Position numbers and translations under genes: made by a program | Shown: positions 257 to 42,674 of the stretch, in pieces | How positions within the stretch are numbered: the stretch's first letter is position 1 | Layout: every line of letters begins with the position of its first letter | The notes under the pieces: model-generated | What the model saw: the letters and a program-made list of their open reading frames with translations, nothing else | What the model was told of the DNA's origin: nothing | Database searches by the model: none | From: a virus | IMG/VR virus record: IMGVR_UViG_3300024294_000597 | DNA: 64,000 bases | Direction: 5' to 3' (one strand)

Positions 257-263
257 TTAACAT

Positions 264-1895: not shown

Positions 1896-1919
1896 TAGAA
1901 TCATAAAGATTCTCCTTTA

Positions 1920-2602: not shown

Positions 2603-2678
2603 ATAATACCCATTGAAACCATTTGTACAAAGAGTTAACTTCGTACAAATGTATTTATCCTTTTCGTCTGTTCATTTT

Positions 2679-4404: not shown

Positions 4405-4408
4405 TATA

Positions 4409-5410
4409 TTATCCGTGAGGATATGATTTGTTTAAGATAGCGGCCATTTCATCAGGCGCTTTAGATAAGTTCTGTAAGTCCCACACCCCACACCACTTTA
4501 GAAAGTTAACACCGACGCCATTGATATTCTTAGGCTTACTTGCTTCTGCTATAGTCTCTACAAAATCTACTTTTAACTCTGTAGGCTGTGCAGTCAAGTC
4601 AATAAGTTTTACATTGCGTTCATAGTCTTCACGTACTGTATGCTCATCACCATGATGGTCAGTCCATTTCTGTAACATGAAGTTATTCCAATTAAAACCG
4701 CCTGTTGCTTTATCTTCAAATGCTTCAATCATACCTGTCTTATTGCGTGAACCCTTTTTACGTACACCAGGGTATGCACTAAAGATATTATCCGATGTAT
4801 CACCACGAATACACTTCTCAAACAGTAACCACTCAGGGTCTGGAGCAGGGAGAAGTTCTTTAGTCTTTTTGTCTTTCATTGGTGTCATGTTCTTATCATC
4901 TTTGAAGAAGCCTTCTTTAGTAATGATACGATTTTGTACACCATCATAAATCTTTACATTGTCTGTGACTAGTTGCATGTAATCACTGTCACTTGATACG
5001 ATAATATGCTCATCGTCTGGATGTGATTCAATAAACAAAGCAATCATATCATCTGCTTCTGCTTGTTTATTATGTAACATAGTACAATTAGTCTTTTTAT
5101 CTAAGAAACCAATCATATCATCATACGCATCAAACATGATTTGATTTTCTTCTTGCTCACGTACTGATAATGACTCACGTGCAATCTTGCGATTAGCTTT
5201 ATATGGCGTGTAAAAGTCTTTACGCCAACTACGTCCTTCTAAACAAAATACTGCATGGTCGGCATTGAATTTGTTATAACACATTTTGACGCTTGACATC
5301 ATAATGTGAAAAGCCATACCGATTTTCATATCGACATTAGCACCACGCATTGCCACGTGTTTTGCTCTATGATACATGTTGAAACTATCAACAAGAATAA
5401 ATGTAGCCAT
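4409..5410 (-). CDS. rnh: T4 RNase H-like 5'-3' exonuclease
   Basis: LVDSFN, YKANR, EADD, SSDSDYMQL and GDTSDNI (H3TH) motifs. Confidence 0.9.
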   Translation of the reverse strand: MATFILVDSFNMYHRAKHVAMRGANVDMKIGMAFHIMMSSVKMCYNKFNADHAVFCLEGRSWRKDFYTPYKANRKIARESLSVREQEENQIMFDAYDDMIGFLDKKTNCTMLHNKQAEADDMIALFIESHPDDEHIIVSSDSDYMQLVTDNVKIYDGVQNRIITKEGFFKDDKNMTPMKDKKTKELLPAPDPEWLLFEKCIRGDTSDNIFSAYPGVRKKGSRNKTGMIEAFEDKATGGFNWNNFMLQKWTDHHGDEHTVREDYERNVKLIDLTAQPTELKVDFVETIAEASKPKNINGVGVNFLKWCGVWDLQNLSKAPDEMAAILNKSYPHG

Positions 5411-5442
5411 TAGTAGATCCTCTTAGTTTTATATACAGTACT

Positions 5443-5471
5443 AGAATAACACACTTTGTGTTACTTGTCAA
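5443..5471 (-). promoter_or_regulatory. sigma70-type promoter for rnh
   Basis: TTGACA-N17-TATTCT on the minus strand. Confidence 0.7.
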
Positions 5472-5932
5472 GAATATTCGGCAGTGTCATCACCGGTTTT
5501 TAGTCTTTGAATGATTACACCATCTTTACTTTTAGTGTCTGCACTTTTAGTGGTACCTTCATCATCTTCAAGTCCTTCCATTACAATGTTCTTACATAAA
5601 TCATTGAACCAGTTGTCAACAATAGTATCATTGTCAGAACCTTCATAGCCATTATTAGCAAGATACTCTACAAAGTCTTCGTTAAAGTCAATCTCAAAGA
5701 AACCTGAACCGGGTTTATTAAGTTCAAGTTCCATCTTTAATACTTTAACCCAAGGCTCTCCTTTTAAAGTAGCAACTTTTTTATCATGGTCATCGTTTGT
5801 AATATGGCCATATTTTAAATCAAGTCCAGCTAACGCAATGTCACGTTCTTTTTCGTTACTTAATTTTTTCGCTTGTATTCTATCAGTTTCTTCTTCTGAC
5901 TTGAACCAAGTGTTTGGTTTCATTATATCCAT
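5468..5932 (-). CDS. Phage hypothetical protein
   Basis: 154-aa ORF (ATLKGEPWV...GFFEIDFNEDFV...WFNDLC). Confidence 0.75.
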   Translation of the reverse strand: MDIMKPNTWFKSEEETDRIQAKKLSNEKERDIALAGLDLKYGHITNDDHDKKVATLKGEPWVKVLKMELELNKPGSGFFEIDFNEDFVEYLANNGYEGSDNDTIVDNWFNDLCKNIVMEGLEDDEGTTKSADTKSKDGVIIQRLKTGDDTAEYS

Positions 5933-5937
5933 AATTA

Positions 5938-6276
5938 TTATCCTTTCAATTCAGGCACTGCCTGTATTAATTCGTCAATCCCTCCCTTGATATAAAGCAT
6001 ATTCTTATATCCATTATTCTTAAGATACTTTGTTACTTGTTCTGACTTTGTACTGTCTTGGCATAAAATCAAACACACAATATGTGTAGGCGCCATTTCA
6101 ATTTGGTCAGGTATTTCATACATTGAAATATTAAACGTTTGTTTAACAACTCCTGCACTTTTACGTTCTTCTGTATCTCTGATATCGACAAGAATATAAT
6201 CTTGTTTCTCATACCATTCATCAACGAATTCTGTAACTGTAATTCCTAAAATTTCTTCATTAGTTTTATAAAACAT
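5938..6276 (-). CDS. Rhodanese-like domain protein
   Basis: LVDIR..EE, loop Cys (LCQDSTKS), GY..MLYIKGG. Confidence 0.75.
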   Translation of the reverse strand: MFYKTNEEILGITVTEFVDEWYEKQDYILVDIRDTEERKSAGVVKQTFNISMYEIPDQIEMAPTHIVCLILCQDSTKSEQVTKYLKNNGYKNMLYIKGGIDELIQAVPELKG

Positions 6277-6279
6277 ATT

Positions 6280-7425
6280 TTAGCATCCTCTATTGATTTC
6301 GGCTTCTAGTGCATCCGCATCTTCGTTCTGTACGCCGTTCCACCCTATTTGTTCCCATGGGACATTCTTGTCACCAAAGTGTCCATATGTACAGTTCTCA
6401 CTATACTTATAAAAATTAAATAAATCAAATCTATCAATGATACCTTTAGGTGTCAAGTCGATATTGTTTCTAATAAACTTTTGAATTGAACGATTATGCC
6501 CGTTACTATCAACATAGATACTAGTTGGTTCCTTAACACCAATAGCATAGCTTAATTGTATATTACACCAATCTGCCATGTTATCTGCTACAATATTCTT
6601 TGCTAACCATCTTGCCATATAAGCCGCTGACCTATCTACTTTCGTAGGATCTTTTCCACTAAAAGCACCCCCACCGTGAGGAGCAAAACCCCCATAGGTA
6701 TCCACGATAATTTTGCGTCCGGTGAGTCCTGTATCACCATCAGGGCCACCAATAACAAACTTGCCAGTAGGATTGATATGCCATATAGTATCTTTATCAA
6801 TTAAATCTCCCATTACATTATTAACTGCTTCACCAACTGTGCTTTTAAGAAGTTGCTCAGAACCCTCAGTATGTTGTGTACTTACAACAATCTGGTCAGC
6901 ACGTTTTACTTTACCACCTTCATATTGTAAACTTACTTGTGATTTCGCATCTGGTAATAGAAATTTATAAGCAGTATTTCGTTTCTCTTTGAGGTCTTTA
7001 AGTATCTCATGTGCGTAATGTATCGGAGCAGGCATCATACTATCTGTGTGGTTACATGCATATCCGAACATCAACCCTTGGTCACCAGCACCGAAATCAT
7101 CAGTACCTAGTCCAATGTCTCCACTCTGTGAATGAATTTCATTATAAATTTTTAATTTATTCCAATGAAATCCCATTTGTTCATATCCAATTTCTTTAAC
7201 TTTATTACGTATAATACGTTCAACAGTCGCATCTGTTAGATTAAAGTTTTTTACTTCGCCCGCTACCGTTACATGGTTGGTGGTTACAAGTGTCTCAATG
7301 GCTACACGTGTTGTTTCATCACCCTTCTCAAGTCCAGCGTCAACTAGTGCATCACTAATTTGGTCTGCTACTTTATCTGGGTGCCCATCACTGACACTCT
7401 CGCTTGTAAAAATATAGTTATTCAT
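6280..7425 (-). CDS. metK: S-adenosylmethionine synthetase
   Basis: FTSESVSDGHPDK, GAGDQG and GGGAFSGKDPTKVDRS signatures. Confidence 0.97.
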   Translation of the reverse strand: MNNYIFTSESVSDGHPDKVADQISDALVDAGLEKGDETTRVAIETLVTTNHVTVAGEVKNFNLTDATVERIIRNKVKEIGYEQMGFHWNKLKIYNEIHSQSGDIGLGTDDFGAGDQGLMFGYACNHTDSMMPAPIHYAHEILKDLKEKRNTAYKFLLPDAKSQVSLQYEGGKVKRADQIVVSTQHTEGSEQLLKSTVGEAVNNVMGDLIDKDTIWHINPTGKFVIGGPDGDTGLTGRKIIVDTYGGFAPHGGGAFSGKDPTKVDRSAAYMARWLAKNIVADNMADWCNIQLSYAIGVKEPTSIYVDSNGHNRSIQKFIRNNIDLTPKGIIDRFDLFNFYKYSENCTYGHFGDKNVPWEQIGWNGVQNEDADALEAEINRGC

Positions 7426-7525
7426 TTTAACTCCTTATTAATATCCAGCTTCCCGAATTCTTTGTTCAAGTCCTGTTTTGTCTTTGACTTCATAATCTTC
7501 ATCATGCCTTGAGGCAGTACCATCA

Positions 7526-8464
7526 TCATGTGCCCCATGCATTTCCGAATAAGTTGATGTGTAATCTGGGCGTGAAACGCCACCCTTTCTCCATGCAAAG
7601 TTGGGCCACCTGCTTGACTGTAAAATCATATCCTTCACTTCTACCGCCCATTGGCATACAATAGACAGGGCACTCAACGCCCGCTTTCCTGTATAGTTCA
7701 ACAGCTTTATGCACTTCATCAACATCAATAGCATCAGCAACAACAAATTTGAGATAGATATCGCTACCATCAACAAGAGCATACTCATGAGCCACATCAG
7801 GCTTAATAGCAGTATCCCAAGATTCTCCAGAAACGGATAGCTTAGGCGAACAACTCCATGTGACTTTAATGCGGTCATTGTCTGTGAGATAGTCAAATAA
7901 CTCGTTGTGTAATGCTTGTGTAGTGTTTGTTTCAAATGTGACATTTTTTAAGTCCTTCATACGTGGATGTTCGAATAGTTCTACGTACAATCGTTGCCAC
8001 GCCAACAACGGTTCGCCTCCTGTTAAAATTAAATGAATGTCTTGTCCATTGTCTTGAGTCCATTTTCCTTCTGGAGTAAGCGATAATAGATGCTCTACTA
8101 CTTCATCAATAGTTTTGTCCATCACTAAATGCTTAAACTCTGGATAGATACTTGCATAAGTGTCACATCCTGTATGTATGATGGGTAAGTCTTCAAATTT
8201 CTTTGTAGTTTCATGTACACCATCTTTAATTAATTGTTCTACTTCTGGATTATAACGTGTCTTCTCTCTGCCTCGCTCAAGACCAAAGTTTTGACAACGT
8301 AAATTACAGCCGAAGGTTCGTAGGAATACACTAGGTACTCCTACAAACTTGCCTTCGCCTTGTACAGAATAAAATGCTTCTGAATATCTCAATTTCATAG
8401 CTGACTTTTTGTTAACTGCTTCGTAAGAAGGATAACCTTTTTCAAATACAGGTGCGCCTATCAT
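7526..8464 (-). CDS. queE: 7-carboxy-7-deazaguanine synthase (radical SAM)
   Basis: EAFYSVQGEG, FLRTFGCNLRC...CDT, TGGEPL, SPKL, PRLH motifs; the start may be at the internal MKLRY. Confidence 0.9.
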   Translation of the reverse strand: MIGAPVFEKGYPSYEAVNKKSAMKLRYSEAFYSVQGEGKFVGVPSVFLRTFGCNLRCQNFGLERGREKTRYNPEVEQLIKDGVHETTKKFEDLPIIHTGCDTYASIYPEFKHLVMDKTIDEVVEHLLSLTPEGKWTQDNGQDIHLILTGGEPLLAWQRLYVELFEHPRMKDLKNVTFETNTTQALHNELFDYLTDNDRIKVTWSCSPKLSVSGESWDTAIKPDVAHEYALVDGSDIYLKFVVADAIDVDEVHKAVELYRKAGVECPVYCMPMGGRSEGYDFTVKQVAQLCMEKGWRFTPRLHINLFGNAWGT

Positions 8465-9162
8465 CTTGGTGCAAACTCCTGTTGTAGTTTAATGTTATCC
8501 ATAAATTCTGTTTTTACATGTGCATTCTCAAAAAAAGAACCTTTGAGAACAGTTGTTTGTGTAAGACTACTATGAGCCATTATACCTCTATTCTCACAAC
8601 AACCATGTGTTGCTTGAATATACACACCTACATCATCTGAGCCTGTAACTTTACGAATTTCTCTGTTTATGTCCATTGCTAGTTCTTCTTGTAGTGTACC
8701 ACGCCTTGCACACCATTGTGCAATACGAGTATACTTGCTTAGACCAATAAGTTTGTCTGCGGCAATGATACCAATGTATGCAACACCTTTAACAGGTTGA
8801 TGATGATGTGAACAGACACTTGTTAGTTCCGAGCGAACAACAAGCATACCTTCATACTTGTCACCTGTTACATTATCTGGTTCATTAGGAAATGCAGTTG
8901 CAGGAGGGGGTAATTCATACCTACCTGCCATGAGTTCGTTGATATACATTTTAGCTAAACGTCTACCTGTATCCATTGAATTTGGATCAGTTTTTCTGTC
9001 TATTACTAAACTGTCTAATACGCCTTCAAACTTTTCAGTGAGTTCGTCTATAAGATTTTCTTTATCACCTTTTTCGATAATATCTGATATATTATCTCCT
9101 GCCCAATAACGAGCGCCCGAGGCATCTAATCGTGCCTTTAATATTTCGGAAGTCTTTTTCAT
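8461..9162 (-). CDS. folE: GTP cyclohydrolase I
   Basis: CSHHHQP, IGLSKYTR, LQEEL and HGCCENRG motifs. Confidence 0.95.
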   Translation of the reverse strand: MKKTSEILKARLDASGARYWAGDNISDIIEKGDKENLIDELTEKFEGVLDSLVIDRKTDPNSMDTGRRLAKMYINELMAGRYELPPPATAFPNEPDNVTGDKYEGMLVVRSELTSVCSHHHQPVKGVAYIGIIAADKLIGLSKYTRIAQWCARRGTLQEELAMDINREIRKVTGSDDVGVYIQATHGCCENRGIMAHSSLTQTTVLKGSFFENAHVKTEFMDNIKLQQEFAPR

Positions 9163-9224
9163 TTATACTATGTTCCTTATCTATATTGTTGTGTATGGTG
9201 GAAAACCCACCCATATACAATACT

Positions 9225-9253
9225 ATTATATACGAGTGGGTCTGTAATGTCAA
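9225..9253 (-). promoter_or_regulatory. Consensus sigma70 promoter for folE-queE-metK
   Basis: TTGACA-N17-TATAAT. Confidence 0.8.
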
Positions 9254-9271
9254 TAGCTAATTTAAAATAAA

Positions 9272-9574
9272 TTAATATTGATATGGTTCGTCATTATATC
9301 CAAGTCCAGTTCTAGCTGTTTCTGTGATAGAACCCATGTCTTGTGTATCAACTACAACCAAGTCATTAACTGTTGAAAGATTAACATAACCTCTTGTGGC
9401 TGATGTTGAGCCTAAAGCGTCACCTCTATGTGTTGCACCAGATGTTGGTAAGTCTTGCGTTGATTCCGTAATATTACCAAAGTCTGCCATTTCACGCATA
9501 TCGATTGAACGTCTTACTTTAACCTTTGGACCAAGCCCTGTGTTATTCATAATCAGTGTTCTATATCTTGCCAT
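9272..9574 (-). CDS. Small late protein with two D[FM]G[NS]ITE motifs, possibly structural
   Basis: ATG at 9574 (MARYRT) after GGAG RBS; CATAAATA at 9626-9633. Confidence 0.65.
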   Translation of the reverse strand: MARYRTLIMNNTGLGPKVKVRRSIDMREMADFGNITESTQDLPTSGATHRGDALGSTSATRGYVNLSTVNDLVVVDTQDMGSITETARTGLGYNDEPYQY

Positions 9575-9589
9575 GTTGTATTCTCCCAT

Positions 9590-9621
9590 AAAAGTGATAG
9601 CGAGTGGGAGACCCACTATCA
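9590..9621 (-). terminator. Hairpin at the glycosyltransferase stop; terminator or leader stem
   Basis: TGATAGTGGGT-CTCCC-ACTCGCTATCA followed by CTTTT. Confidence 0.5.
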
Positions 9622-10689
9622 TCTGTATTTATGCAATTCTTTAACTAAATTATCAACAGAGTAAAAGTTTCTTACATTTTCAATTTCTTTTGACATTGCA
9701 TCTTCCATGTCAGAGTTTTTATTCATTAAGATACGAATATGTGTCTTAATTTGTTCTATGTTTTCTTTTACTGCATCTAAACTAGTTGTCCATTCGCTAG
9801 GATATTTGAACGTATCAGACCACATTTCTGTATATGATAGTCTATCTGGTACCAATGGGATAGCACCAACTACAAGTCCTTCAAATACAGATATACCTAA
9901 AGTTTCTTGTAAGTTAGCACTAAACACCATCTTTGCCTTACCAAGCATCGTGTGGTATTCTTCTTTCGATAAATTAAGTTCTTGACACTTCACCCAATTA
10001 TACTCGGGCATTTGCTCTGCAAGATAGTCAAAAACTTCTGGTTGCTTTTCAGGCGCTAACCTGTGAGGAAATAAAATAGTATCCTCTTTTGCCATACCCT
10101 TATAGTCTGCTAAATCGCTTTCTATATATTCCATAGGCCAACCCACTTGTCGTATAGAGTGAAGGAGTTGCCGGTCGATATCCCTATCGTCTTCAAAAAA
10201 TGTCTGGGTAAAAAGGTCAATATGAAATCTAGTTGCAAAGAAGTTATCATCGAAACATTCATACATTGACATTTCAGCATTTCGAACCCATGGACGGTTC
10301 CCTATTAATCTACCTAAAAAGTCATGAGGGTCATACGAACCCGCATGCCACATACCCCCAATCCGGATATCAATACCCAACAGTTCAGCCATATATTTTA
10401 ATTGGATAACTGTTGGGTTCCAAGCATCAGTGTACAGAAAATAATCACCATCTTTAATTTTGCCTTCACAAAACAGTTGTGAAATTTTTGTAATCTGTGC
10501 CGCCTTGTAGATATTAGTACCACCGAAATTCAAAAAAGCACCGGGTGTAGTGGCTTCGGGAATGCCTGCACTAGGGCCGTCTATCACCGTCACATTCAGT
10601 CCGTTGTTTTTTAGAACAGTTGGGAAATGTGTCTTCCATTGCTTAGTGTAGCGGGATTCAACACTTTCCAAATCTACAAGATATATCAT
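9619..10689 (-). CDS. GT-B glycosyltransferase
   Basis: FPHRLAPEKQ and LQETLGISVFEG..VGAIPLVP (GT4-like E-x7-E). Confidence 0.8.
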   Translation of the reverse strand: MIYLVDLESVESRYTKQWKTHFPTVLKNNGLNVTVIDGPSAGIPEATTPGAFLNFGGTNIYKAAQITKISQLFCEGKIKDGDYFLYTDAWNPTVIQLKYMAELLGIDIRIGGMWHAGSYDPHDFLGRLIGNRPWVRNAEMSMYECFDDNFFATRFHIDLFTQTFFEDDRDIDRQLLHSIRQVGWPMEYIESDLADYKGMAKEDTILFPHRLAPEKQPEVFDYLAEQMPEYNWVKCQELNLSKEEYHTMLGKAKMVFSANLQETLGISVFEGLVVGAIPLVPDRLSYTEMWSDTFKYPSEWTTSLDAVKENIEQIKTHIRILMNKNSDMEDAMSKEIENVRNFYSVDNLVKELHKYR

Positions 10690-28133: not shown

Positions 28134-28160
28134 AAAAAAAGACCCACTCAGAAGTGGGCC
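28134..28160 (-). terminator. Intrinsic terminator closing the early-gene block
   Basis: GGCCCACT-TCTG-AGTGGGTC then T7. Confidence 0.8.
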
Positions 28161-28296: not shown

Positions 28297-28494
28297 TCAA
28301 TCTAAATCGCATTGCCAATACTTACCATCATACCAAGCACGAAGCCCGCCCAATGGATAATCCGTATGTTCAAAGAATATGTAAGGACGGCCCTTTGCAT
28401 CAATTTTCTGTTCTATGATACTGGCTTCTTCTAAAGGTATTAGACGTTCAGCACCAGTATCTTCGTAAACTGCACTATTAAAAATGCGTATCAT
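28297..28494 (-). CDS. Small early protein, paralogue of 28801-28989
   Basis: MIRIFNSA...PYIFFEH.DYP.G.L.A...W.CDLD. Confidence 0.75.
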   Translation of the reverse strand: MIRIFNSAVYEDTGAERLIPLEEASIIEQKIDAKGRPYIFFEHTDYPLGGLRAWYDGKYWQCDLD

Positions 28495-28495
28495 C

Positions 28496-28735
28496 TTACG
28501 CCGCCTCTCCGAAAAGTTTGCTCATGTTTGAAAATACTACATTATAAGCATTTGCTTCATACTCATAATTATCCCAGAAGTTATCATCATCATTGCCTGA
28601 TGCACAATGCTCTTCCCAAACACGGTTCATTGCGTTCATTCCTTCTAGTGCATCGCCACGACCAAAACTTTCGATTGTCTTCCAAGCATCTTCAAAACTT
28701 GGTGTTGCTTCATAAAAACTAGGGATTCTAAACAT
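28496..28735 (-). CDS. Small acidic early protein
   Basis: 79 aa; GAGAGA RBS; own promoter. Confidence 0.7.
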   Translation of the reverse strand: MFRIPSFYEATPSFEDAWKTIESFGRGDALEGMNAMNRVWEEHCASGNDDDNFWDNYEYEANAYNVVFSNMSKLFGEAA

Positions 28736-28768
28736 ATTATTCTCTCTCTTTTGATTAACTATACTTAT

Positions 28769-28796
28769 AGTATACAGCGATTCGCTATTTTGTCAA
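28769..28796 (-). promoter_or_regulatory. sigma70 promoter with spacer GANTC
   Basis: TTGACA-N6-CGAATCG-N3-TATACT. Confidence 0.8.
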
Positions 28797-28800
28797 GTTT

Positions 28801-28989
28801 TTAGTCTAAATCACAAGACCAATGTTCGCCATTATATTCTGCCTTTAACGAACCCATGGGGTAATCGCTATGCTCAAATAAGATATAAGGAGAACTATAT
28901 ACTGGACAAATCTTTTGTGTCACTATGTTTACTTCATCTAGTGACAACCAACGTTCTCCGGGGATAGCTGAATTAAAAATACGAATCAT
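28801..28989 (-). CDS. Small early protein, paralogue of 28297-28494
   Basis: MIRIFNSA...PYILFEHSDYPMGSLKA...WSCDLD. Confidence 0.75.
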   Translation of the reverse strand: MIRIFNSAIPGERWLSLDEVNIVTQKICPVYSSPYILFEHSDYPMGSLKAEYNGEHWSCDLD

Positions 28990-29015
28990 TTGAACCTCTC
29001 TCTGATTACTTAATT

Positions 29016-29043
29016 AATATAGCACGATTCGTTAATTTGTCAA
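29016..29043 (-). promoter_or_regulatory. sigma70 promoter with spacer GANTC
   Basis: TTGACA-N6-CGAATCG-N3-TATATT. Confidence 0.8.
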
Positions 29044-29045
29044 GT

Positions 29046-29531
29046 TTAAACTAGACTTGTACGGGTATCGCCTTCAATTTTAAGGACGCATTCGCCTGTA
29101 CTAAGGTTATCGACATTACCAACAAACTTACCAATAAGATGTTCATATTCTGTTCCTTCCTGAAATCCACCAACTATATAGCCACGTTTCATATACCAAT
29201 CACCTTTGTCATTCTTACGAACAACATTATCAAGGTACAAAGTATCCCAACCTTTTGGGTCGTACTCTTTTTGTGATTGTACGTATTCTGATTCAAAGTT
29301 ATCTTCAACTTGATAACAATCAAAGAAGTTTTCTTCGTATGCTTCGTTTGAAGATGTAACTAAATCTATAACGGAAGAAGCCTCATCATAATTGCTGGCT
29401 TCAACAACATAGGTGCTACCACCTTTGTTCTTCCAATAAGAAGTAACACCATCCCAATCTGAATCATGGGCGGCATAGTTTTCACGGATAGCAGTTTCGA
29501 TAACAAATTTGTTCATAGCTTTCTCCTTCAT
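29046..29531 (-). CDS. Early hypothetical protein
   Basis: ENYAAH...YWKNKGGSTY; likely start MNKFV (AAGGAG RBS). Confidence 0.7.
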   Translation of the reverse strand: MKEKAMNKFVIETAIRENYAAHDSDWDGVTSYWKNKGGSTYVVEASNYDEASSVIDLVTSSNEAYEENFFDCYQVEDNFESEYVQSQKEYDPKGWDTLYLDNVVRKNDKGDWYMKRGYIVGGFQEGTEYEHLIGKFVGNVDNLSTGECVLKIEGDTRTSLV

Positions 29532-29540
29532 TATGTATAT

Positions 29541-29568
29541 AATATATCATGATTCGGAGATATGTCAA
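29541..29568 (-). promoter_or_regulatory. sigma70 promoter with spacer GANTC
   Basis: TTGACA-N6-CGAATCA-N3-TATATT. Confidence 0.8.
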
Positions 29569-32084: not shown

Positions 32085-33575
32085 TTATTTAACTGTTGGT
32101 CTTAGCTTAGTCAATGCAATAAAGATTAAGCTAGATACAATTAAACCAGGAACTATCGGCTCAACAAAGTTGTATACACCCATATCATAAGTGATACCAG
32201 TGAATAGCTTTGATTCTTTGAAGTGTACGAATAGTACCCAAATGATACTCACCGAAGCACCACCGATAAAACTAGTAAGAGCATGACGACCATTAGATAG
32301 TCCTCTTGCCATACCAATAACGAGTGGAAGCATCGCCGCTCCTATAATACCAAAGTACAACGCAGTAGCACGTGCAATGATGGCCACTTGACCATTAAAT
32401 GCAATAGTCATCCAGACTGCTAATACAATAACTGCAATCATAGAAATATATGCTACTTTCAAACTTGGGTTTTTAGTTTTGATAATATCATTTGAAATAG
32501 TAGTTGATAACAAGTGCATCAAACTATTAAGTGTTGTAAATGCGGCCGCTAAAATTGTAACGAACAACGCACTACTTACCCAAGCAGGAAATCCTTCCTT
32601 AATCCAATAAGGGATTACATTTGCAGTCCCTCCACCAGATGCTTGTGATACAGTGATACCTTCAGTCGCAAACGTATATGAGTTAGCCGAAATTGCCGCT
32701 AACATAAATGTTACGATTGCTAGACCTGGGATAATAACACCCCACCTTGCAATAGTTTTAAAACTCTTTTCATCTTTAGCCATCATCCAACGTGTTTGTA
32801 GTTGAGGCAAAGTGATAAGTCCTACTGGAATAGTGAATACCAATAATGTAGTAATCATTAACCAGCCTCTAGACCAAAACTCTGGCCAGCTAGTAAACCC
32901 AGTAAATCCTAACTTATGCAAAGCATCACCTTCTGGAACTGCTGTCCAGGCTAGTGATAAGTTTTCCCAAAATCCAACTGCCTGCATATGACTAAACACT
33001 GTAATAGCAAGTACGATAAGTGAACCTAAAATAACAATGATACCTTGTACCATATCATTTTTTAGAACTGCACTCATTCCGCCATATGCGATTGTGCCAA
33101 ATACTAAAACACTAAATCCAACTACAGCAAGTGTGAAATCAACACCTGTAAATGCTGTAATAAATTTACCGACACCTATTAGCACCGCAACACAGTAAAA
33201 CGGAATTAATCCAACTGTGATGATTGCCAATAGTTTTGAAATCATTGGAGAGTTATAATGCTTACCAATCATTTCAATATAGGTTTTAGCTTTATGCTTT
33301 TTGTTTGCCTTATAAACTTTAGGACCGATATACACGGTCGCAAAATAAATTAAGCCTACAAATGGAATTGTCATTGTTAGTGGGACTGCAAATCCAATCC
33401 AACCAGCAAGGCCTCCGAATCCAATGATAGCAGACGTTGAAATTAACGTTGCACCATAAGACAGCCCTAGGTTCATATTACTATCTGATGTAGTTAGAAA
33501 GTAATTATCCCCTTTAGACCTGTAGGCTACATAACCTACTGCTACAATAAAAAGTAGCATTAATATTGTGTTCAT
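32085..33575 (-). CDS. Sodium:solute symporter family transporter
   Basis: About 13 TM; ATLISTSAIIGFGGLA, YGGMSAVLKNDMVQG, LAAAFTTLNSL. Confidence 0.85.
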   Translation of the reverse strand: MNTILMLLFIVAVGYVAYRSKGDNYFLTTSDSNMNLGLSYGATLISTSAIIGFGGLAGWIGFAVPLTMTIPFVGLIYFATVYIGPKVYKANKKHKAKTYIEMIGKHYNSPMISKLLAIITVGLIPFYCVAVLIGVGKFITAFTGVDFTLAVVGFSVLVFGTIAYGGMSAVLKNDMVQGIIVILGSLIVLAITVFSHMQAVGFWENLSLAWTAVPEGDALHKLGFTGFTSWPEFWSRGWLMITTLLVFTIPVGLITLPQLQTRWMMAKDEKSFKTIARWGVIIPGLAIVTFMLAAISANSYTFATEGITVSQASGGGTANVIPYWIKEGFPAWVSSALFVTILAAAFTTLNSLMHLLSTTISNDIIKTKNPSLKVAYISMIAVIVLAVWMTIAFNGQVAIIARATALYFGIIGAAMLPLVIGMARGLSNGRHALTSFIGGASVSIIWVLFVHFKESKLFTGITYDMGVYNFVEPIVPGLIVSSLIFIALTKLRPTVK

Positions 33576-34126: not shown

Positions 34127-34666
34127 ATGATTATTACAGAAGAACTAAAAGTAATAACACCTGAACTGAAAGATTTTCTAAAAGTATGCGATGAAAAAGA
34201 TTTCATGAACAACAATACATTAGAAAATATGAAGTTTGAATGGTGCTTAGAGCGAGGTGGCATGTGGTATGCTACCTATGACAATGGACGTATGGTTAGT
34301 GTCAGTGGAATACATCCATGGGCAAACGGTTGGCGTGCTTTATTCAGAGGTGTGCAGACTGAAAGCAAAAAGATAGGTTTGAACAGACACCATATGCAAA
34401 GCTATTGCTTTCATAGTCAGTTGCCATATCAGATTGAATATGCGTCAAGTAAAGAAACAGATTTAGATAATATGTTTATCTATATTACTACTAACACAGA
34501 GAATGATGCAAGTGGTAAGATGAATAGAATTGATAAAACATTCTTTCATTTAGAAAAGTTAGAGTTAGTTAAGAACTTAGGAACAAGTGAAGTTTTTGGT
34601 GTAAATCAAAACACGTGGATATTAAACATAAACAAATACAATGAAATTAGAAGACAGTATAACTAA
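34127..34666 (+). CDS. GNAT-like hypothetical protein
   Basis: Beta-strand pattern MWYATYDNGRMVSVSGIH; weak assignment. Confidence 0.45.
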   Translation: MIITEELKVITPELKDFLKVCDEKDFMNNNTLENMKFEWCLERGGMWYATYDNGRMVSVSGIHPWANGWRALFRGVQTESKKIGLNRHHMQSYCFHSQLPYQIEYASSKETDLDNMFIYITTNTENDASGKMNRIDKTFFHLEKLELVKNLGTSEVFGVNQNTWILNINKYNEIRRQYN

Positions 34667-35339
34667 AAACGAATTTGATGATATGCTTAAAGAAGGCTGT
34701 ATACTGCAAAGTAGCGGAACAACAGGCGTACCAAAGAATATATTTCAAAATCCTGATAAATTAAGACATGCAAATGCTGTTGCTAGAAAAATACAAGGTA
34801 TTGATAGTGATAGTAAAATACTTACTGTTTGTACATTACGGCATGCAGGTGGGCTATTAGCCCAAACATTGCCAGGATATGAAGTAGGGGCAGAAATCGA
34901 GGTAGAGAAATTTAACCCGTTCTCATGGGTCAGAAAGATACAAAACTTTTCTCATAGTCACCTGACGCCTGATATGGCAAGAGCAATAATGAAAACAAAA
35001 AGTTTTAATAGTCTTAATTTACAAGATAAGATTATCATGTGTGGCAGTGATAGAGTACATAGTTCTATTATAAAAGAATTTATTAACAAGGGAGCAATCT
35101 TTATTGTAAATTGGGGTATGACAGAAGTAGGACCAGTAGCAATTAACAAGACGTTTGTTCCTGGAATGGAAGTTCGTACTACTGAAACAATAATGGGCAA
35201 CGCCGCACAATGTGAAACTAAGATTGTAAATGATGAATTATATGTCAAGGGAGATATATGTGTATATGATGATTGGTTTGCTACTGGAGATTTAGTACAA
35301 AACAAGGAAGGTATGTTCTACTATGTTGGACGAAAGTAG
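34641..35339 (+). CDS. Minimal ANL-family adenylating enzyme
   Basis: SSGTTGVPK, WGMTE, ATGDL, YVGRK; lacks the C-terminal subdomain. Confidence 0.8.
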   Translation: MKLEDSITKNEFDDMLKEGCILQSSGTTGVPKNIFQNPDKLRHANAVARKIQGIDSDSKILTVCTLRHAGGLLAQTLPGYEVGAEIEVEKFNPFSWVRKIQNFSHSHLTPDMARAIMKTKSFNSLNLQDKIIMCGSDRVHSSIIKEFINKGAIFIVNWGMTEVGPVAINKTFVPGMEVRTTETIMGNAAQCETKIVNDELYVKGDICVYDDWFATGDLVQNKEGMFYYVGRK

Positions 35340-36090
35340 AATTATATTCATATCATTTGAACAGGGATGTGGTGGACATAAATTAGGGAGAGTATTGTCT
35401 TGCTTACCTGATGTATATTGGTATAGTCATAAAGATAACGGTACTAACCCATGGAATGTTTATTTTAAAAATTCAGATATACGACAACGGCATATAAGTC
35501 GCTATCATTTTGATAGACTAGTACCTAATGGTTCCTTGCCGCCAATACATGATTATGTAAAAGATTTTATACCAGATGAGGAACATTACTATACTAGGTT
35601 CTTTTACCCACGCTTCGAAAAGATGGGTGGCCATGCGATAATCAAAAAGAATAGAATTATTATATGCACACACGAATTGCCAGAGAAATTACTAAAAAGA
35701 TTTCCTAATGCAAAAGTATTAAATTTGATAGATGATGAATATACAACAGGCGAACGATACTTGCGAACAACTGCGGTGTTTCCTGGATTTCTTAAAATGA
35801 AATGGCTAGGTGGAGAAAATACAGAATATGGGAAAAAGCTAAGAACAATCGCCAAAGAGATAGGCTCTGATTTCACAATACGAGATATTTGGTCTTGGGA
35901 TAAATATAAATTGAAGTTCAATGATAAACATCACATTGAGTACTCTATGCATATACACGACATTATAAGAATGAATATGTGGAAAAGACGTTATCTACCC
36001 TCACGTTATATAAATTCATCAAACATATATGAAATAGATAAAAACTATGTAAACTATAAAGGTATAAAAAGGTTCTTGAATGATAGATGA
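35323..36090 (+). CDS. P-loop/sulfotransferase-like hypothetical protein
   Basis: ISFEQGCGGHKLGRVL N-terminal loop, CTHE, FPNAKVL. Confidence 0.45.
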   Translation: MLDESRIIFISFEQGCGGHKLGRVLSCLPDVYWYSHKDNGTNPWNVYFKNSDIRQRHISRYHFDRLVPNGSLPPIHDYVKDFIPDEEHYYTRFFYPRFEKMGGHAIIKKNRIIICTHELPEKLLKRFPNAKVLNLIDDEYTTGERYLRTTAVFPGFLKMKWLGGENTEYGKKLRTIAKEIGSDFTIRDIWSWDKYKLKFNDKHHIEYSMHIHDIIRMNMWKRRYLPSRYINSSNIYEIDKNYVNYKGIKRFLNDR

Positions 36091-36793
36091 AAGTAAACTT
36101 ATATTTTTTACAGGTGCTCCTGGAAGTAAATGGAGTGCAGTAAGTAATGTGTTGTCTATGACAAAAAAGATTAACATCAATACTACTGATAGAAATGAAG
36201 ATAGAGAATATACACATCCAACTAAATTTAATAAAGCACAACATCTAGGAAGTTACTTTGGCACGGGCATGGAGTTCGGTGAAGGTTGGCATGAGATTAA
36301 TAAGTTCTCAAAACAAGAAATATTAAATGAAATAGATAAAGCCTGGAAAGAAGAAAAAAGAACTGATTACAGAATTGTAAAATCACATATGATATCAAAC
36401 AACTTAGATTTTATTGCAGAGACATTTCCTAAGAGTAAGATTATAATAGTGTTCAGACCTATAGAAAGTTGTTATAAAGGTTGGTTTGGTGCAGGTGGGT
36501 TTGATATAACTTATCCAAAGTATCATGGTTACTATAAAGATGAACAAACTGCACGTGAATATATAAAAGAAGAAACTAAAGATGCAAGACAATGGATATT
36601 TAATAGAAACTTAACAATTCATACTGCAACCAGTAAGCATTGGAAAGATTATTGGGATATAACTGATAGTCAAAATAGATTTATAAAAAGTATAGAGGGT
36701 TATTTCTTTGAAAAGAAAGATCCTAGTAGAGATGTTTCGTTAGACACTCATATTGCTTATTATAATTTTGATAAAATAGATGAAAGATTATAA
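36080..36793 (+). CDS. Sulfotransferase-like P-loop protein, paralogue of 37863
   Basis: FTGAPGSKWS, IVKSH, FPKSKII..FR, GGFDITYP.Y. Confidence 0.55.
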   Translation: MIDESKLIFFTGAPGSKWSAVSNVLSMTKKININTTDRNEDREYTHPTKFNKAQHLGSYFGTGMEFGEGWHEINKFSKQEILNEIDKAWKEEKRTDYRIVKSHMISNNLDFIAETFPKSKIIIVFRPIESCYKGWFGAGGFDITYPKYHGYYKDEQTAREYIKEETKDARQWIFNRNLTIHTATSKHWKDYWDITDSQNRFIKSIEGYFFEKKDPSRDVSLDTHIAYYNFDKIDERL

Positions 36794-37881
36794 TGTTATT
36801 AAAATATGCAATCGTTGTACTTAGAAGTGGCGATGACCATTTTGATAAGATTGCTCTAAATTATACACAATTAAGTTTAGACTATCAAGAATGCAATAGA
36901 TTACCAACAGAAAACCAAGTTGATTATTATGTAATGGACAGTTACACATACTTGCATGATTACGATATTGTTATGGTTGTCAATGCTGGAACTATATTCT
37001 TATGGGGTGCATACGAACATCATTATAAAAAAATGATTGAAGCATCAAATCATGAATATATACATTTTAGTGATGACGTTTGGTTTCATAAGCCATTGGG
37101 CGACGGCACAACCCACATAGAAGCAAAGTTTATTCATAAGTTAAACACAGATAGTGCAGAAGAATTCTACAATAGCCATGATACTATTTTAACAAGTTTA
37201 ATTGATGATAGCAATATTACATATCTAATGCACAATGAAATACCAAACTACGGAGATATAACTAAACCAGTTGATTGGGCAATAACAGTAAGCAGTGGAT
37301 TTTTCATTAACTGTATATTAGACCATCATGGGTTTAATGAGAAGTCTGTAATACATCATGTCGATATCTCAAAGATAAGTCTTCATGTTCACAAGTATAC
37401 TATTGAAAATTGGGATGGAAATGATTTTGAATCATGGATAGAACATCTTAACAATAAATTTCCTAGCATGTCACTTTGGAATAGAAAGAAATTTACTAGT
37501 GAAGATAGAAAATGGAAAGTCGTATGGGAAGATGTACAGAATCATTTCGGAGACAAATGGCAAGAACACTGGAACAAATATAAAAGTTTAAATCATAAGT
37601 GGCATAGAATGAATATAAAAGATATTAGTTCTATTGATACTAATGGGCAAGGAATGATATGGTGGGACGGTGCATTAAAAAGAATACCAAGTAACCTACT
37701 AAAGACAAGTAAACAAAGTCATCAAAATGCAATAGATTTCTTATGGAGATTACCAGAAGATACGATATGCTATGGCAACGACCATTGCAATTTGCAATTT
37801 GATGGTGTAAGTTCTAAACTAGCACTTAAAAAAGTTCTATCACACAATAGCAGAGAGAAATTATGGACGGACAAGATTTAA
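36793..37881 (+). CDS. Hypothetical protein
   Basis: 362-aa ORF, translationally coupled on both sides. Confidence 0.7.
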   Translation: MLLKYAIVVLRSGDDHFDKIALNYTQLSLDYQECNRLPTENQVDYYVMDSYTYLHDYDIVMVVNAGTIFLWGAYEHHYKKMIEASNHEYIHFSDDVWFHKPLGDGTTHIEAKFIHKLNTDSAEEFYNSHDTILTSLIDDSNITYLMHNEIPNYGDITKPVDWAITVSSGFFINCILDHHGFNEKSVIHHVDISKISLHVHKYTIENWDGNDFESWIEHLNNKFPSMSLWNRKKFTSEDRKWKVVWEDVQNHFGDKWQEHWNKYKSLNHKWHRMNIKDISSIDTNGQGMIWWDGALKRIPSNLLKTSKQSHQNAIDFLWRLPEDTICYGNDHCNLQFDGVSSKLALKKVLSHNSREKLWTDKI

Positions 37882-38564
37882 TATTGGCAACAGGTGCTCC
37901 TGGGAGTAGATGGAGTGGCACCTTACGTGCTATTAGTACTAATCCAAATATCAATATTAGTGACGAAAGAAGTGAACTAGAATACGCCAGAGACTATGTT
38001 ACGCCTGATGGTAAAACAAAACAGTATGGTTGGCATCGAGGTGCTTATTGGGGTCCATATCATAATCAAGGTCAAAGATTTGATAATCTACAAGATATGA
38101 CAAAAGATGAAATCATAAAAGAATTCAAAAAGCCATATAAAGATTTTAACTATGGTGTTAAGATAATAAAAAGTCATTGGTTTGCATATCATCTTCCTTT
38201 ACTACAAGACTTATTTCCAAAAGCAAAGATTATGGCTGTATATATGCCATCTGATTTTTGTTTTGATTGGTGGAGAAATAAAGTAGGTGGTTGGGATATA
38301 TCATATCCACATTATGATTGGTATGAGAATGATGCACGTATGATTAAACAGATTAACATAGAAAATACAAATATAGAAAACTTCTTTGATTTACAACAAC
38401 TATCAATATATGAAGTGTTTGAAAAACTTGGTCTACCATCTGAATTTAGAAGTGAAGAAGAATTAATTTCACAAGATTCTAAATTGAAAGATTTAACTAA
38501 GAATAAAGATTATAAAAAAGTTTTAGATAACACAGTACATCGTAGTTTTACTGGTATAAAATAA
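37863..38564 (+). CDS. Sulfotransferase-like P-loop protein, paralogue of 36080
   Basis: ATGAPGSRWS, IIKSHW, FPKAKI, GGWDISYPHY. Confidence 0.55.
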   Translation: MDGQDLILATGAPGSRWSGTLRAISTNPNINISDERSELEYARDYVTPDGKTKQYGWHRGAYWGPYHNQGQRFDNLQDMTKDEIIKEFKKPYKDFNYGVKIIKSHWFAYHLPLLQDLFPKAKIMAVYMPSDFCFDWWRNKVGGWDISYPHYDWYENDARMIKQINIENTNIENFFDLQQLSIYEVFEKLGLPSEFRSEEELISQDSKLKDLTKNKDYKKVLDNTVHRSFTGIK

Positions 38565-39151
38565 TGAAAGATGTACCTAACTCTGGAACATATGTAATGA
38601 TGTTGAGTGGCGGACTTGATAGTGCGTTACTCTCTTATCTAGTTCTAAAAGAGTTACCAAATACAAAGCTGGTCTTAAGTAGTGTATGTCATCAATCTTT
38701 AAATTACTATAATCTATTTAATGTAATAGCAATTACAAATTGGTTACATGCTAGATTTCCAAACAGAATTGAAGAACATTATATTGGTTACTATAAAGAT
38801 AGAAATGAAGCACGAAACAATAGAACCAAAACTAGAGATAGACTTATTGATAAACATAAAGCATCAGGTATATTAACTGGTATGACACTAAATCCCTCTG
38901 AATTAATGACAGAAGGACGTGATGAAAGTAGAGACAAAAAGCGAGAAATTAGAGTAATCTCATCACATGGGGTATATCATTATCGTCCGTTTATAAATAG
39001 TACTAAACAAACGGTAGCAGAATTATATAACGAACATAATTTACAAGACTTAGCAAATTTAACTATCAGTTGTGAAAGCGAAAGTTTGCCTAGACCATGT
39101 AAAGAATGTTGGTGGTGTAAAGAGAAGTATTGGGCTTTCGGTTACTATTAA
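38564..39151 (+). CDS. QueC-like PP-loop ATPase
   Basis: MLSGGLDS, PFINSTK, SC-x8-CKECWWC Zn motif. Confidence 0.7.
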   Translation: MKDVPNSGTYVMMLSGGLDSALLSYLVLKELPNTKLVLSSVCHQSLNYYNLFNVIAITNWLHARFPNRIEEHYIGYYKDRNEARNNRTKTRDRLIDKHKASGILTGMTLNPSELMTEGRDESRDKKREIRVISSHGVYHYRPFINSTKQTVAELYNEHNLQDLANLTISCESESLPRPCKECWWCKEKYWAFGYY

Positions 39152-39166
39152 TGTAAAGGACACGAA

Positions 39167-39847
39167 ATGTCATTAGGACTAGAAGAATATAATAAGTTTC
39201 ATCCAACTGTATTACAACCTCTTGATATGAAAATTGATGTAAATTTGTTTGAAGAACAAATGCATGAATACAGATACGCATTTAGACGTTGGGGTACTAA
39301 ACACACTGAATATCCAAGATATGGAGCTCCTCTCGTTAATTTAAACGGAGATATGTTCAACAATCCAGAACCTATATGTTATCCATTAAATCAATGGAAT
39401 GAAGGAAAGAAAGAAGAAGATAAAGTACGTGACCCGAAATGTACTTCACCTACTCCAATGTTGGCAGAATCATGCTTTGATCCTCTTGAACCAATTAAAC
39501 CTTTTATGTATAGAAGTGCTATATTAAAGTGGCATACTACTGGACATTTTAAACCTCATACAGATACTAAAATACCTAGTGATATTATTAGACTATGGGG
39601 AACAAATGATCCAGATAATATGATATTTCAATTTGATAAAGATAGAAAAACAGCTAGTCCAAGAGAAGTGGCAGAGGGTAATCTATCATATGATTTAGTA
39701 AGAGAAAAAGATATAGAAGCAGGTAGATTATATATAACAGATACACACGTAATACATGATGCAAGTTCTATCGGTGATAATGTATATCAATTTTTTATTT
39801 CATTAAGCACTGATAGTATGCCAACATTGAAAGAGTTACTATTATGA
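39167..39847 (+). CDS. 2OG-Fe(II)/Asp-hydroxylase-like oxygenase
   Basis: FKPHTD...GRLYITDTHVIH. Confidence 0.6.
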   Translation: MSLGLEEYNKFHPTVLQPLDMKIDVNLFEEQMHEYRYAFRRWGTKHTEYPRYGAPLVNLNGDMFNNPEPICYPLNQWNEGKKEEDKVRDPKCTSPTPMLAESCFDPLEPIKPFMYRSAILKWHTTGHFKPHTDTKIPSDIIRLWGTNDPDNMIFQFDKDRKTASPREVAEGNLSYDLVREKDIEAGRLYITDTHVIHDASSIGDNVYQFFISLSTDSMPTLKELLL

Positions 39848-40260
39848 ACTACACCAAATTAGACTTACCAAAAATACCAAAAGATTTGATACTTCCACTA
39901 GAAGAAGTATTGAAACTTGAAAATATATTTGGAGGCAAAAGTAAGAATTATACAATACATGAATGCCAACCAGAACTTAAGGAATATTTGCAAGAGTTAT
40001 TCCCTGATTGTACTAAATTTAGATATCAGACATTAACAAAGGATATACCAATACACACAGATAGAGGTAGAGAATTTGCAATTAATTATATTATACAAAC
40101 TGGTGGACAAAATGCAGAGACATGTTGGTATGAAGAATTTGTACAAGAACCTATAGATTCTGTTATAATACCCAAAGAAGAATGGCATAAATTAGCAGTA
40201 AACGTGCATCATACAGTAAGAAATATCACAGATTGGCGATTTGCTATCACTGTGTGCTAA
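39844..40260 (+). CDS. 2OG-Fe(II)/cupin oxygenase-like
   Basis: PIHTD, INYII, HHTV, R. Confidence 0.6.
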   Translation: MNYTKLDLPKIPKDLILPLEEVLKLENIFGGKSKNYTIHECQPELKEYLQELFPDCTKFRYQTLTKDIPIHTDRGREFAINYIIQTGGQNAETCWYEEFVQEPIDSVIIPKEEWHKLAVNVHHTVRNITDWRFAITVC

Positions 40261-40294
40261 AATAGATAAATAGTAGTATATTAGGGAGACAACG

Positions 40295-40564
40295 ATGCCA
40301 CATATATTAAGATTTAAAAACGAAGGTACAGGCGAAGACGGTAAGCAATGCTCAGATGATGCACAGGCAATTTATGACCGTTATGTAGCCGAAAATAAAA
40401 TTATAGAAATGGATATCATTACTATGGGTTTAGCTGGTGAATACACTAAGATTGCTTTTGCAACATCAGAAGATTGTGATGCATTTAGACAAGAAATGTC
40501 TGATATCAATGAATCTGAAACAAGCGGTGATAATCGTTCAGATGTATCCAGATATGATGAATAA
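40295..40564 (+). CDS. Small acidic late protein
   Basis: GATAAATA (40265-40272) and GGGAG RBS upstream. Confidence 0.7.
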   Translation: MPHILRFKNEGTGEDGKQCSDDAQAIYDRYVAENKIIEMDIITMGLAGEYTKIAFATSEDCDAFRQEMSDINESETSGDNRSDVSRYDE

Positions 40565-40575
40565 CTAAGGATTAT

Positions 40576-40746
40576 ATGAGAGACACTAAATCGCTAACCG
40601 GGTATACAACTAAGATGCTACGTGAAGCGAAACAGAAACTTCTTTCTCGTTTCCTACGAAAAGAAGTAAATATTGGAAACAATGGTACACAAGATTACAT
40701 AATAAAAAAAGGACCGAACAAAGGTTCAGTCGCAAAGAAAAAGTAA
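40576..40746 (+). CDS. 56-aa basic protein
   Basis: MRDTKSLTGY...EVNIGNNGTQDYIIKKGPNKG; AAGGA RBS; below the ORF-track cutoff. Confidence 0.6.
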   Translation: MRDTKSLTGYTTKMLREAKQKLLSRFLRKEVNIGNNGTQDYIIKKGPNKGSVAKKK

Positions 40747-41920: not shown

Positions 41921-42005
41921 TGGTGCCCATGGAGGGACTTGAACCCCCACTCCGTAAAGAACAGGTACCTAAAACCTGCGTGTCTACCAATTTCACCACA
42001 TGGGC
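41921..42005 (-). tRNA. tRNA-Leu(TAG)
   Basis: GCCCATGTGGTGAAATTGGTAGACAC-GCAGGT-TTTAGGT-ACCTG...GTTCAAGTC...CACCA. Confidence 0.93.
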
Positions 42006-42014
42006 TAAATTTTG

Positions 42015-42230
42015 TTATTCAGATTTTGAAAAATATTTCTCAATCATTTCTAGTCGGTCATTAGCGGCCGCAAGTTTATTAAGTTCTTCAATGACTGCCT
42101 CGGTAACATCTGAATGCTCTCCGATACCAGCAGGCATTGTTTGATAAACTTGAATGTTTGCTAGATGAACCGCTACTTCACCTTCTGCTTGTTTTTGTGC
42201 GGCTAGGATAATTGCTTCGCCTGGTTTCAT
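42015..42230 (-). CDS. Phage hypothetical protein
   Basis: HLANIQVY..PAGIGEHSD..E.I..EL. Confidence 0.7.
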   Translation of the reverse strand: MKPGEAIILAAQKQAEGEVAVHLANIQVYQTMPAGIGEHSDVTEAVIEELNKLAAANDRLEMIEKYFSKSE

Positions 42231-42251: not shown

Positions 42252-42327
42252 TGGTGCCGATTGTCGGATTCGAACTGACGACCTACTGATTACAAATCAG
42301 TTGCTCTACCAACTGAGCTAAATCGGC
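42252..42327 (-). tRNA. tRNA-Thr(TGT)
   Basis: GCCGATTTAGCTCAGTTGGTAGAGCA-ACTGA-TTTGTAA-TCAGT...GTTCGAATC...CACCA. Confidence 0.95.
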
Positions 42328-42450: not shown

Positions 42451-42636
42451 TTATTCTTGTATTTCTATTTTTCTATGCGATAATTCAGAATACACTTCCA
42501 TCCAACGCATCAAATCATCATGTGTTGGTGAACCTTTTTTTCGTATCATGTAAAATTCTTTTAGTAACTCTTTCACTGAACGTGACTTCAAGTCTTGTTG
42601 ATACATACCTCGGGACCTTTCGAAATGTTTTCTCAT
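42451..42636 (-). CDS. Small early hypothetical protein
   Basis: 61 aa, directly after a GANTC promoter. Confidence 0.55.
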   Translation of the reverse strand: MRKHFERSRGMYQQDLKSRSVKELLKEFYMIRKKGSPTHDDLMRWMEVYSELSHRKIEIQE

Positions 42637-42645: not shown

Positions 42646-42674
42646 AATATAACACAGATTCGTTGCATAGTCAA
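42646..42674 (-). promoter_or_regulatory. sigma70 promoter with spacer GANTC
   Basis: TTGACT-N6-CGAATCT-N4-TATATT. Confidence 0.7.

Follow-up and report, generated by a model that had tools for sequence, protein, structure and literature searches.

Promoters with a fixed-position, GcrA-type GANTC box in a family of uncultured marine jumbo phages

What reads a GANTC word that a phage places at one fixed position inside its promoters? The question is raised by a 64,000-nucleotide stretch (hereafter the window) of the IMG/VR virus record IMGVR_UViG_3300024294_000597, part of the ~342-kb genome of an uncultured marine jumbo phage. Four minus-strand promoters in the window, P1 to P4, read TTGAC[AT]-N6-CGAATC-N4/5-TATAYT. 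An initial annotation had reported these promoters and had proposed that they form an early class for small host-takeover genes, responding in an alphaproteobacterial host to the methylase CcrM or to the sigma70 cofactor GcrA. Its observation stands: three tandem promoters and a fourth lie exactly where it placed them, with the same plus-strand 7-mers and the fixed N6 after the -35 hexamer. Its interpretation holds in part. The four promoters are as follows.

P1, 29541..29568, minus strand: -35 TTGACA at 29568-29563; box CGAATC at 29556-29551, read on as CGAATCA (plus-strand 7-mer TGATTCG at 29550-29556); -10 TATATT at 29546-29541
P2, 29016..29043, minus strand: -35 TTGACA at 29043-29038; box CGAATC at 29031-29026, read on as CGAATCG (plus-strand 7-mer CGATTCG at 29025-29031); -10 TATATT at 29021-29016
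P3, 28769..28796, minus strand: -35 TTGACA at 28796-28791; box CGAATC at 28784-28779, read on as CGAATCG (plus-strand 7-mer CGATTCG at 28778-28784); -10 TATACT at 28774-28769
P4, 42646..42674, minus strand: -35 TTGACT at 42674-42669; box CGAATC at 42662-42657, read on as CGAATCT (plus-strand 7-mer AGATTCG at 42656-42662); N5 after the box; -10 TATATT at 42651-42646

The boxed-promoter feature is real and strongly non-random. The string TTGAC-N7-CGAATC occurs four times in the window, against a mean of 0.03 in 100 dinucleotide shuffles, none of which reached four. Plus-strand GATTCG occurs 11 times in all, four times as these boxes and three times in tRNA T-loops. Each promoter has a sigma70-type core, with hexamers scoring 11/12 in three of them and 10/12 in P4 (one mismatch per hexamer), and with spacers of 16-17 bp (16 bp in P1 and P2, 17 bp in P4); P1 (TGa) and P2 (TGc) also have a TGn extended -10. 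The box is not a general property of sigma70-type promoters in the window. The six others that the initial annotation had named as lacking it (-10 ends at 5443, 9225, 14247, 18665, 33736 and 46674) are all free of GANTC from the -35 to +5, spacer included. A promoter at 25438 with a 16-bp spacer has no GANTC in that spacer either, though its leader carries a GAATC.

The box corresponds closely to the site of GcrA, as the initial annotation had suggested. The best GcrA word in Caulobacter is TGATTCG, the broader consensus is YGAKTCK, and the bound GANTC sites are methylated (PMC4647560). Three of the four window boxes fit YGAKTCK (TGATTCG once, CGATTCG twice). The position corresponds as well. 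Caulobacter GcrA sites are narrowly centred around -20, or lie at +2 to +30 (PMC4647560). In the promoter PcsM, GAATC occupies -22 to -18, and a single GcrA molecule binds this spacer site from the side facing away from polymerase (PMC9976885). Taking the -10 hexamer as -12 to -7, and with start sites predicted from sequence, the phage GAATC occupies -21 to -17, or -22 to -18 in the N5 form, so that the box is centred near -19/-20, and its strand is that of the PcsM site.

The same word recurs when promoters are chosen without regard to the box. Relatives of the phage in IMG/VR include a 103-kb contig that is ~96% identical over part of the window and two ~342-kb contigs, of which one, G002, is complete with terminal repeats and ~83% identical. 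One relative of 342.6 kb is recorded as IMGVR_UViG_3300020469_003050. G002 plus the window contain 25 matches to TTGACA, a 16-bp spacer, TGn and TANNNT; 21 of these, which have an upstream AAAAC and stand in front of genes, were kept. GANTC lies at one common spacer position in 18 of the 21, in the 7-mers CGAATCG/A, AGAATCG/A, CGATTCG and TGATTCG. All 18 boxes fit YGAKTCK on one strand, where about one in four would be expected to do so given GANTC. Within this set only A or T occurs as the middle base and only C, A or T as the 5′ flank, and both GANTC and the GcrA-type flanks are retained throughout. The adjoining N6 is nearly free, while conservation of the box roughly equals that of the hexamers. 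The flanks are asymmetric and YGAKTCK-like rather than palindromic, which suits a monomeric reader. Among 91 extended -10 promoters of other phages, found by scanning IMG/VR a second time with no box in the pattern, none has GANTC at this place. The pattern of permitted changes argues for selection on the box word itself, despite the shared ancestry of these promoters, and word, flanks, position and monomer-like asymmetry all agree with a GcrA site as far as sequence can tell.

We therefore consider it somewhat probable that a host GcrA-sigma70 holoenzyme reads the box in the phage promoters. GcrA in Caulobacter rides on domain 2 of sigma70. In an alphaproteobacterial host, RNA polymerase-sigma70 would travel with GcrA bound to that domain, and the small DNA-binding domain of GcrA would read YGAKTCK in the major groove at about -20, on the face opposite polymerase. 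This contact would stabilise binding and open-complex formation. With the best GcrA site placed at about -20, some of the promoters that the phage leaves to host polymerase would gain activity in the presence of GcrA, possibly more so if the box carries N6-methyladenine (m6A) set by host CcrM. The boosted subset would comprise promoters of small genes without a known family and of tRNA units. We infer GcrA as the reader, any role of methylation and the early timing; the four sites themselves appear to be strong sigma70-type promoters of a family-wide class, AAAAC, TTGACA, N6, (C/A)GA(A/T)TC(A/G), TGn, TATAYT, with a 16-bp spacer.

This reading presupposes an alphaproteobacterial host, to which three lines that are independent of the box point: MetK phylogeny, GAWTC depletion and polymerase neighbours. 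The nearest cultured relatives of the family B DNA polymerase are those of two jumbo phages of Rhizobiaceae, Phosso (48%) and Atu_ph07 (45%), followed by Rak2/GAP32-like phages at ~42%. In a MetK tree, the phage clade joins Pelagibacter, Paracoccaceae and Roseobacteraceae with support of 100/99, apart from Halomonadaceae, Steroidobacteraceae and an enterobacterial symbiont, and a forced union of the phage with gammaproteobacterial MetK is rejected (approximately unbiased test, p = 0.004). This phage MetK clade is very diverse in marine metagenomes, with hundreds of members at 75-95% identity; the window's own gene (381 amino acids (aa), 6280-7425) adjoins a QueE-like radical-SAM gene, the pair spanning 6280-8464 on the minus strand. 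GAWTC is depleted in the window phage, with an observed/expected ratio of 0.55 in the window (rank 12 of 1008 5-mers) and 0.60 in G002. The compared phages gave these ratios.

DSS3_VP1, phage of Alphaproteobacteria: 0.58
Atu_ph07, phage of Alphaproteobacteria: 0.75
Mosig, phage of Alphaproteobacteria: 0.79
Phosso, phage of Alphaproteobacteria: 1.01
Six phages of gamma- or betaproteobacteria: 0.86-1.30

The depletion in the window phage thus resembles that of three of the four alphaproteobacterial phages compared. GcrA itself was found in 4/4 alphaproteobacterial genomes checked, including a 1.2-Mb Pelagibacter genome, and was absent from one gammaproteobacterium. The MetK tree and GAWTC depletion thus point, independently of the box, to the host group that the initial annotation had suggested from it.

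Other candidate host markers were set aside. The sodium:solute symporter has no near bacterial relative, the ClpB-like ATPase has ~45% identity to proteins of many phyla, and PutA belongs to an old phage clade with 38-43% identity to both alpha- and gammaproteobacteria. These three are uninformative, and MetK is the sole borrowed gene with a host signal. Binning was likewise rejected as evidence. One family contig sits in a GcrA-bearing alphaproteobacterial metagenome-assembled genome (MAG), but the MAG has 59-60% GC and the contig 33%; two contigs with the phage-type MetK (68-69% identity to the window's) sit in Thaumarchaeota MAGs. Such stray, seemingly phage-derived contigs, namely L420 and L421 (Thaumarchaeota MAGs; their MetK falls in the phage clade) and L110 (a 60%-GC alphaproteobacterial MAG; its ClpB-like gene is 81% identical), look like MAG contamination.

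The distribution of the box word within the phage genome is uneven. Relative to coding DNA, the stretches between genes are 1.7-2.0 times richer in GANTC and 2.9-3.9 times richer in YGAKTCK, while words of the same composition show no such excess. The phage seems to keep the box word where it is useful and to remove it elsewhere. The initial annotation had proposed a search for phage gcrA and ccrM genes, and this came back empty: the complete relatives encode neither GcrA (PF07750) nor a CcrM/HinfI-class N6/N4 methylase, and the sole weak PF01555 match, the one methylase candidate, is a radical-SAM/SPASM protein. Any reader or writer would consequently be the host's, and methylation of phage DNA would hinge on host CcrM. 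MucR/Ros is absent from the complete relatives, as is DpdA/TGT, so that there is no sign of 7-deazaguanine DNA despite the QueE-like gene. Three further words are strongly avoided in both the window and G002, namely GATC (observed/expected 0.19-0.25), CGCG (0.15-0.27) and GAGCT/AGCTC (0.14-0.17), which suggests restriction pressure and a host without Dam.

These facts bear on the idea that the box works through host CcrM methylation with no part for GcrA, m6A at -19/-20 altering the binding of RNA polymerase or of a methyl-sensitive protein, such that the promoters would sense the methylation of phage DNA. The invariant core of the box is indeed the CcrM word GANTC with its middle base free (A or T), and GANTC is purged from coding DNA. 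However, the flanks are held to YGAKTCK in 18/18 promoters, as needed by GcrA and not by CcrM (PMC4647560), and the phage has no methylase to set the mark. We regard this as very unlikely.

Conservation extends beyond the box to a whole cassette of ~60 nt, which also takes in AAAAC ahead of the -35, the TGn of the extended -10 and the initial transcribed sequence RTAATCAGAGAGG; aligned instances run AAAAC, TTGACA, a variable N6, CGAATC(A/G), TG(C/T), TATAYT and leader. From the predicted +1 the leader reads (G/A)TAATCA, followed by a Shine-Dalgarno run of the AGAGAGG type (29000-29016 in the window, and family-wide), and the conserved leader AATTAAGTAATCAGAGAGAGG lies 3′ of P2. As the leader is conserved from the predicted +1, the cassette fixes the leader as well as the promoter. 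P1 has an orthologous promoter in G002 at 48160 and in contig L039, and P4 has one in G002 at 36189. In some promoters of the family another GANTC (GAATC or GATTC) directly follows the -35, giving two boxes per spacer (G002 at 80842, 169063 and 337736; contig L022). In some relatives a second GANTC is present in the leader, where it falls in the +2 to +30 zone of Caulobacter.

Scans for the pattern place it in the phage's own family. The strict form, TTGACA-N6-CGAATC-N4-TATAYT, is found in 88 IMG/VR stretches with 112 instances (60 distinct), clustered in contigs of the family, of which one of 342 kb holds eight. Its 59 occurrences in prokaryote genomes (596 Gb) are scattered single hits, with neither clustering nor taxon bias. 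A relaxed form occurs 19 times in G002 and eight times in the relative G001, always on the gene strand, where reversed-pattern controls gave 0-1; the strong position bias that a genome-wide scan had been suggested to look for is thus present in the relatives. Ten cultured phages gave 0-1 relaxed matches each (Atu_ph07, Phosso, DSS3_VP1, Mosig, GAP32, PA5oct, Vibrio 2.275.O, XbC2, SCTP-2 and Melnitz), and we found neither the region nor the cassette in any cultured phage. When a loose pattern was run on bacterial genomes, four alphaproteobacterial and one gammaproteobacterial, it did no better than its reversed control. The T4 late motif TATAAATA is not enriched, with 4 found against ~13 expected.

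A cassette of this kind could carry the box along as a passenger. The box would then have no function of its own, being either an inherited part of a promoter module that duplication and recombination carry in front of small genes or an intrinsic spacer element read by RNA polymerase. The 50-56-nt stretch at P2 recurs at 87-94% identity in dozens of IMG/VR contigs, repeating the whole ~60-nt cassette, leader included, and the promoters stand directly after stop codons or terminators, as mobile promoter modules would. Against this, box and hexamers are conserved to much the same degree, whereas the N6 beside the box has almost no constraint; the box changes only in ways that preserve GANTC and the flanks of a GcrA site, and its word is otherwise avoided in the genome. 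A spacer element of this sort is not known for sigma70. Either form of this explanation therefore seems very improbable.

Several points weigh against GcrA as the reader. The box of P4, AGATTCG, mismatches the Y of YGAKTCK; the start sites from which positions are counted are sequence predictions; the promoters are related by descent, and counts such as 18/18 overstate their independence. On the host side, the taxon sample for MetK was small and picked by shared peptides, and Phosso shows no GAWTC depletion (1.01). Atu_ph07 and Phosso have zero and one pattern matches, though they are the nearest cultured alphaproteobacterial jumbo phages; the host of Atu_ph07 has proven GcrA and CcrM, yet this phage has neither boxed promoters nor intergenic enrichment. 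The complete relatives, moreover, lack both GcrA and a CcrM/HinfI-class methylase. In Caulobacter, GcrA activates promoters in a strongly methylation-dependent way (PMC4647560, PMC5887438), and as the phage has no such methylase, incoming or replicating phage DNA may be a poor substrate.

Part of this evidence would fit a different reader, a phage-encoded DNA-binding protein that acts as a repressor after the first minutes or as an activator, the likeness to GcrA being coincidental. For most of the genes around the boxes no function is known, the phage family lacks gcrA, the box is missing from its closest cultured relatives on Alphaproteobacteria, and one promoter subclass has a conserved, operator-like 15-bp palindrome over its -10. 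Phages often mark promoter classes with a factor of their own, as with the MotA boxes of T4. However, a random conserved 7-mer would fit YGAKTCK on either strand only about once in a thousand, and this one is also at the position preferred by GcrA. Its variants keep GANTC and asymmetric GcrA-type flanks, not the dyad that a dimeric phage protein would favour, and the genome-wide depletion of GAWTC is shared with other alphaproteobacterial phages. We think a phage factor unlikely, and retain host GcrA as the preferred reader.

Early timing and a takeover role, as proposed in the initial annotation, are assumptions; the downstream genes have no known function, and the small genes driven by P1-P3 matched no PHROG or Pfam family. 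P1, P2 and P3 are each placed immediately after the stop codon of the preceding gene.

29046..29531, minus strand: P1-driven gene, ~156-161 aa; likely start at the second ATG, at 29516, behind GGAG
28801..28989, minus strand: P2-driven gene, a small open reading frame (ORF) of 62 aa
28496-28735, minus strand: P3-driven gene, 79 aa, first of two small genes (28297..28735)
28297-28494, minus strand: P3-driven gene, 65 aa, second of these two small genes
28141..28160, minus strand: terminator-like hairpin and T-run, ending the small-gene unit fed by P1-P3
41921..42636, minus strand: unit downstream of P4, consisting of a small ORF, tRNA-Thr, a 71-aa ORF and tRNA-Leu
42451-42636, minus strand: small ORF of the P4 unit, likely start 42606
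42252-42327, minus strand: tRNA-Thr of the P4 unit
42015-42230, minus strand: 71-aa ORF of the P4 unit
41921-42005, minus strand: tRNA-Leu of the P4 unit

The -10 of P3 forms one arm of the 15-bp palindrome TATACT-ATA-AGTATA. The general form TATACT-NNN-AGTATA (window 28755-28774, minus strand) is also present in contigs L006, L010, L012, L031, L040 and L065; across contigs the arms are conserved and the 3-nt loop varies (ATA or GTA). This palindrome may be an operator or a divergent -10.

The window has 36% GC and encodes, besides its family B DNA polymerase, a 1247-aa HD/CCA-adding/nucleotidase fusion, radical-SAM genes, five tRNAs, a sodium:solute symporter and a ClpB-like ATPase. An Rfam search returned the five tRNAs only, and no cultured phage close at the DNA level was found. 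A link to moraphages was dismissed, as the relevant paper (PMC12619734) treats a different, Bacteroidota-linked lineage. The symporter (SSF family, 496 aa) lies at 32085-33575 on the minus strand, and its ESM Atlas cluster is mostly viral. Within the minus-strand genome, a plus-strand block at 34127-40746 (31% GC) holds ~10 genes, hardly any of which match a family. At its left end, two consensus promoters stand back to back, at 34073 (plus strand) and 34125 (minus strand); the block is 96% identical in IMGVR_UViG_3300001472_004174.

Known systems offer partial parallels. The closest are the GcrA/CcrM promoters PcsM and PmipZ of Caulobacter crescentus (PMC4647560, PMC5887438, PMC9976885), which likewise combine a sigma70 core with one GANTC, in the form TGATTCG or YGAKTCK, in the spacer at about -20 (in the phage promoters, as counted from predicted start sites). 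Here, in contrast, the promoters are on a virus and not on host cell-cycle genes; their hexamers are near-consensus and of the Escherichia coli type, with a TGn extended -10 and a 16-bp spacer, and the phage itself encodes neither the methylase nor GcrA. phiCbK-like Caulobacter phages encode a GcrA homologue (PMC3556154) and would resemble the window phage in tapping the GcrA axis of an alphaproteobacterial host. They carry the factor, with no GcrA boxes described in their promoters, whereas the family studied here carries the site and no factor. In phiCbK, YGAKTCG is not enriched overall (63 against a control of 51). Its forward-strand TGATTCG words all lie within the terminal repeats, one of them (site 1850 of 1-10400) being intergenic, between two repeat copies that contain TTGACG.

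In T4 middle promoters, a MotA box at a fixed position replaces the -35, is read by MotA/AsiA and times a set of phage genes. The likeness is a class set by an extra fixed-position box on a sigma70 -10; here, unlike in T4, the promoters retain their -35, and a host cofactor on sigma domain 2 is presumed to read the box. PeSL (promoter-early stem-loop) cassettes, reportedly described by Arbiol et al. 2010, are said to flank small genes in T4-type phages. These too are repeated, near-identical promoter modules before single small genes, often after a terminator hairpin or stop codon. PeSLs are not known to contain a GANTC or GcrA-type element, and the cassette studied here also adds a conserved leader. 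In the literature, GcrA boxes are known in host promoters and GcrA homologues in phages; we found no account of GcrA-type boxes in phage promoters.

We speculate, and with considerable doubt, that widespread marine phages gate their first genes on the cell-cycle and epigenetic state of the host. The promoters would then fire fully only in S-phase cells with GcrA, and m6A left, or not left, by the CcrM of the previous host would tell the cell type of origin. Were this so, these would be the first viruses known to read a bacterial epigenetic cofactor through their own promoters. Of the epigenetic transcription modules of bacteria, GcrA/CcrM is the one best understood, and it is so far known only for host cell-cycle genes. 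If host GcrA does read the box, infection would be tied to the cell-cycle phase and DNA methylation of the host in abundant marine Alphaproteobacteria. The box together with GAWTC depletion would provide a sequence-only marker of alphaproteobacterial hosts for uncultured phages, and the cassette would give alphaproteobacterial genetics compact, strong promoters that depend on a cofactor.

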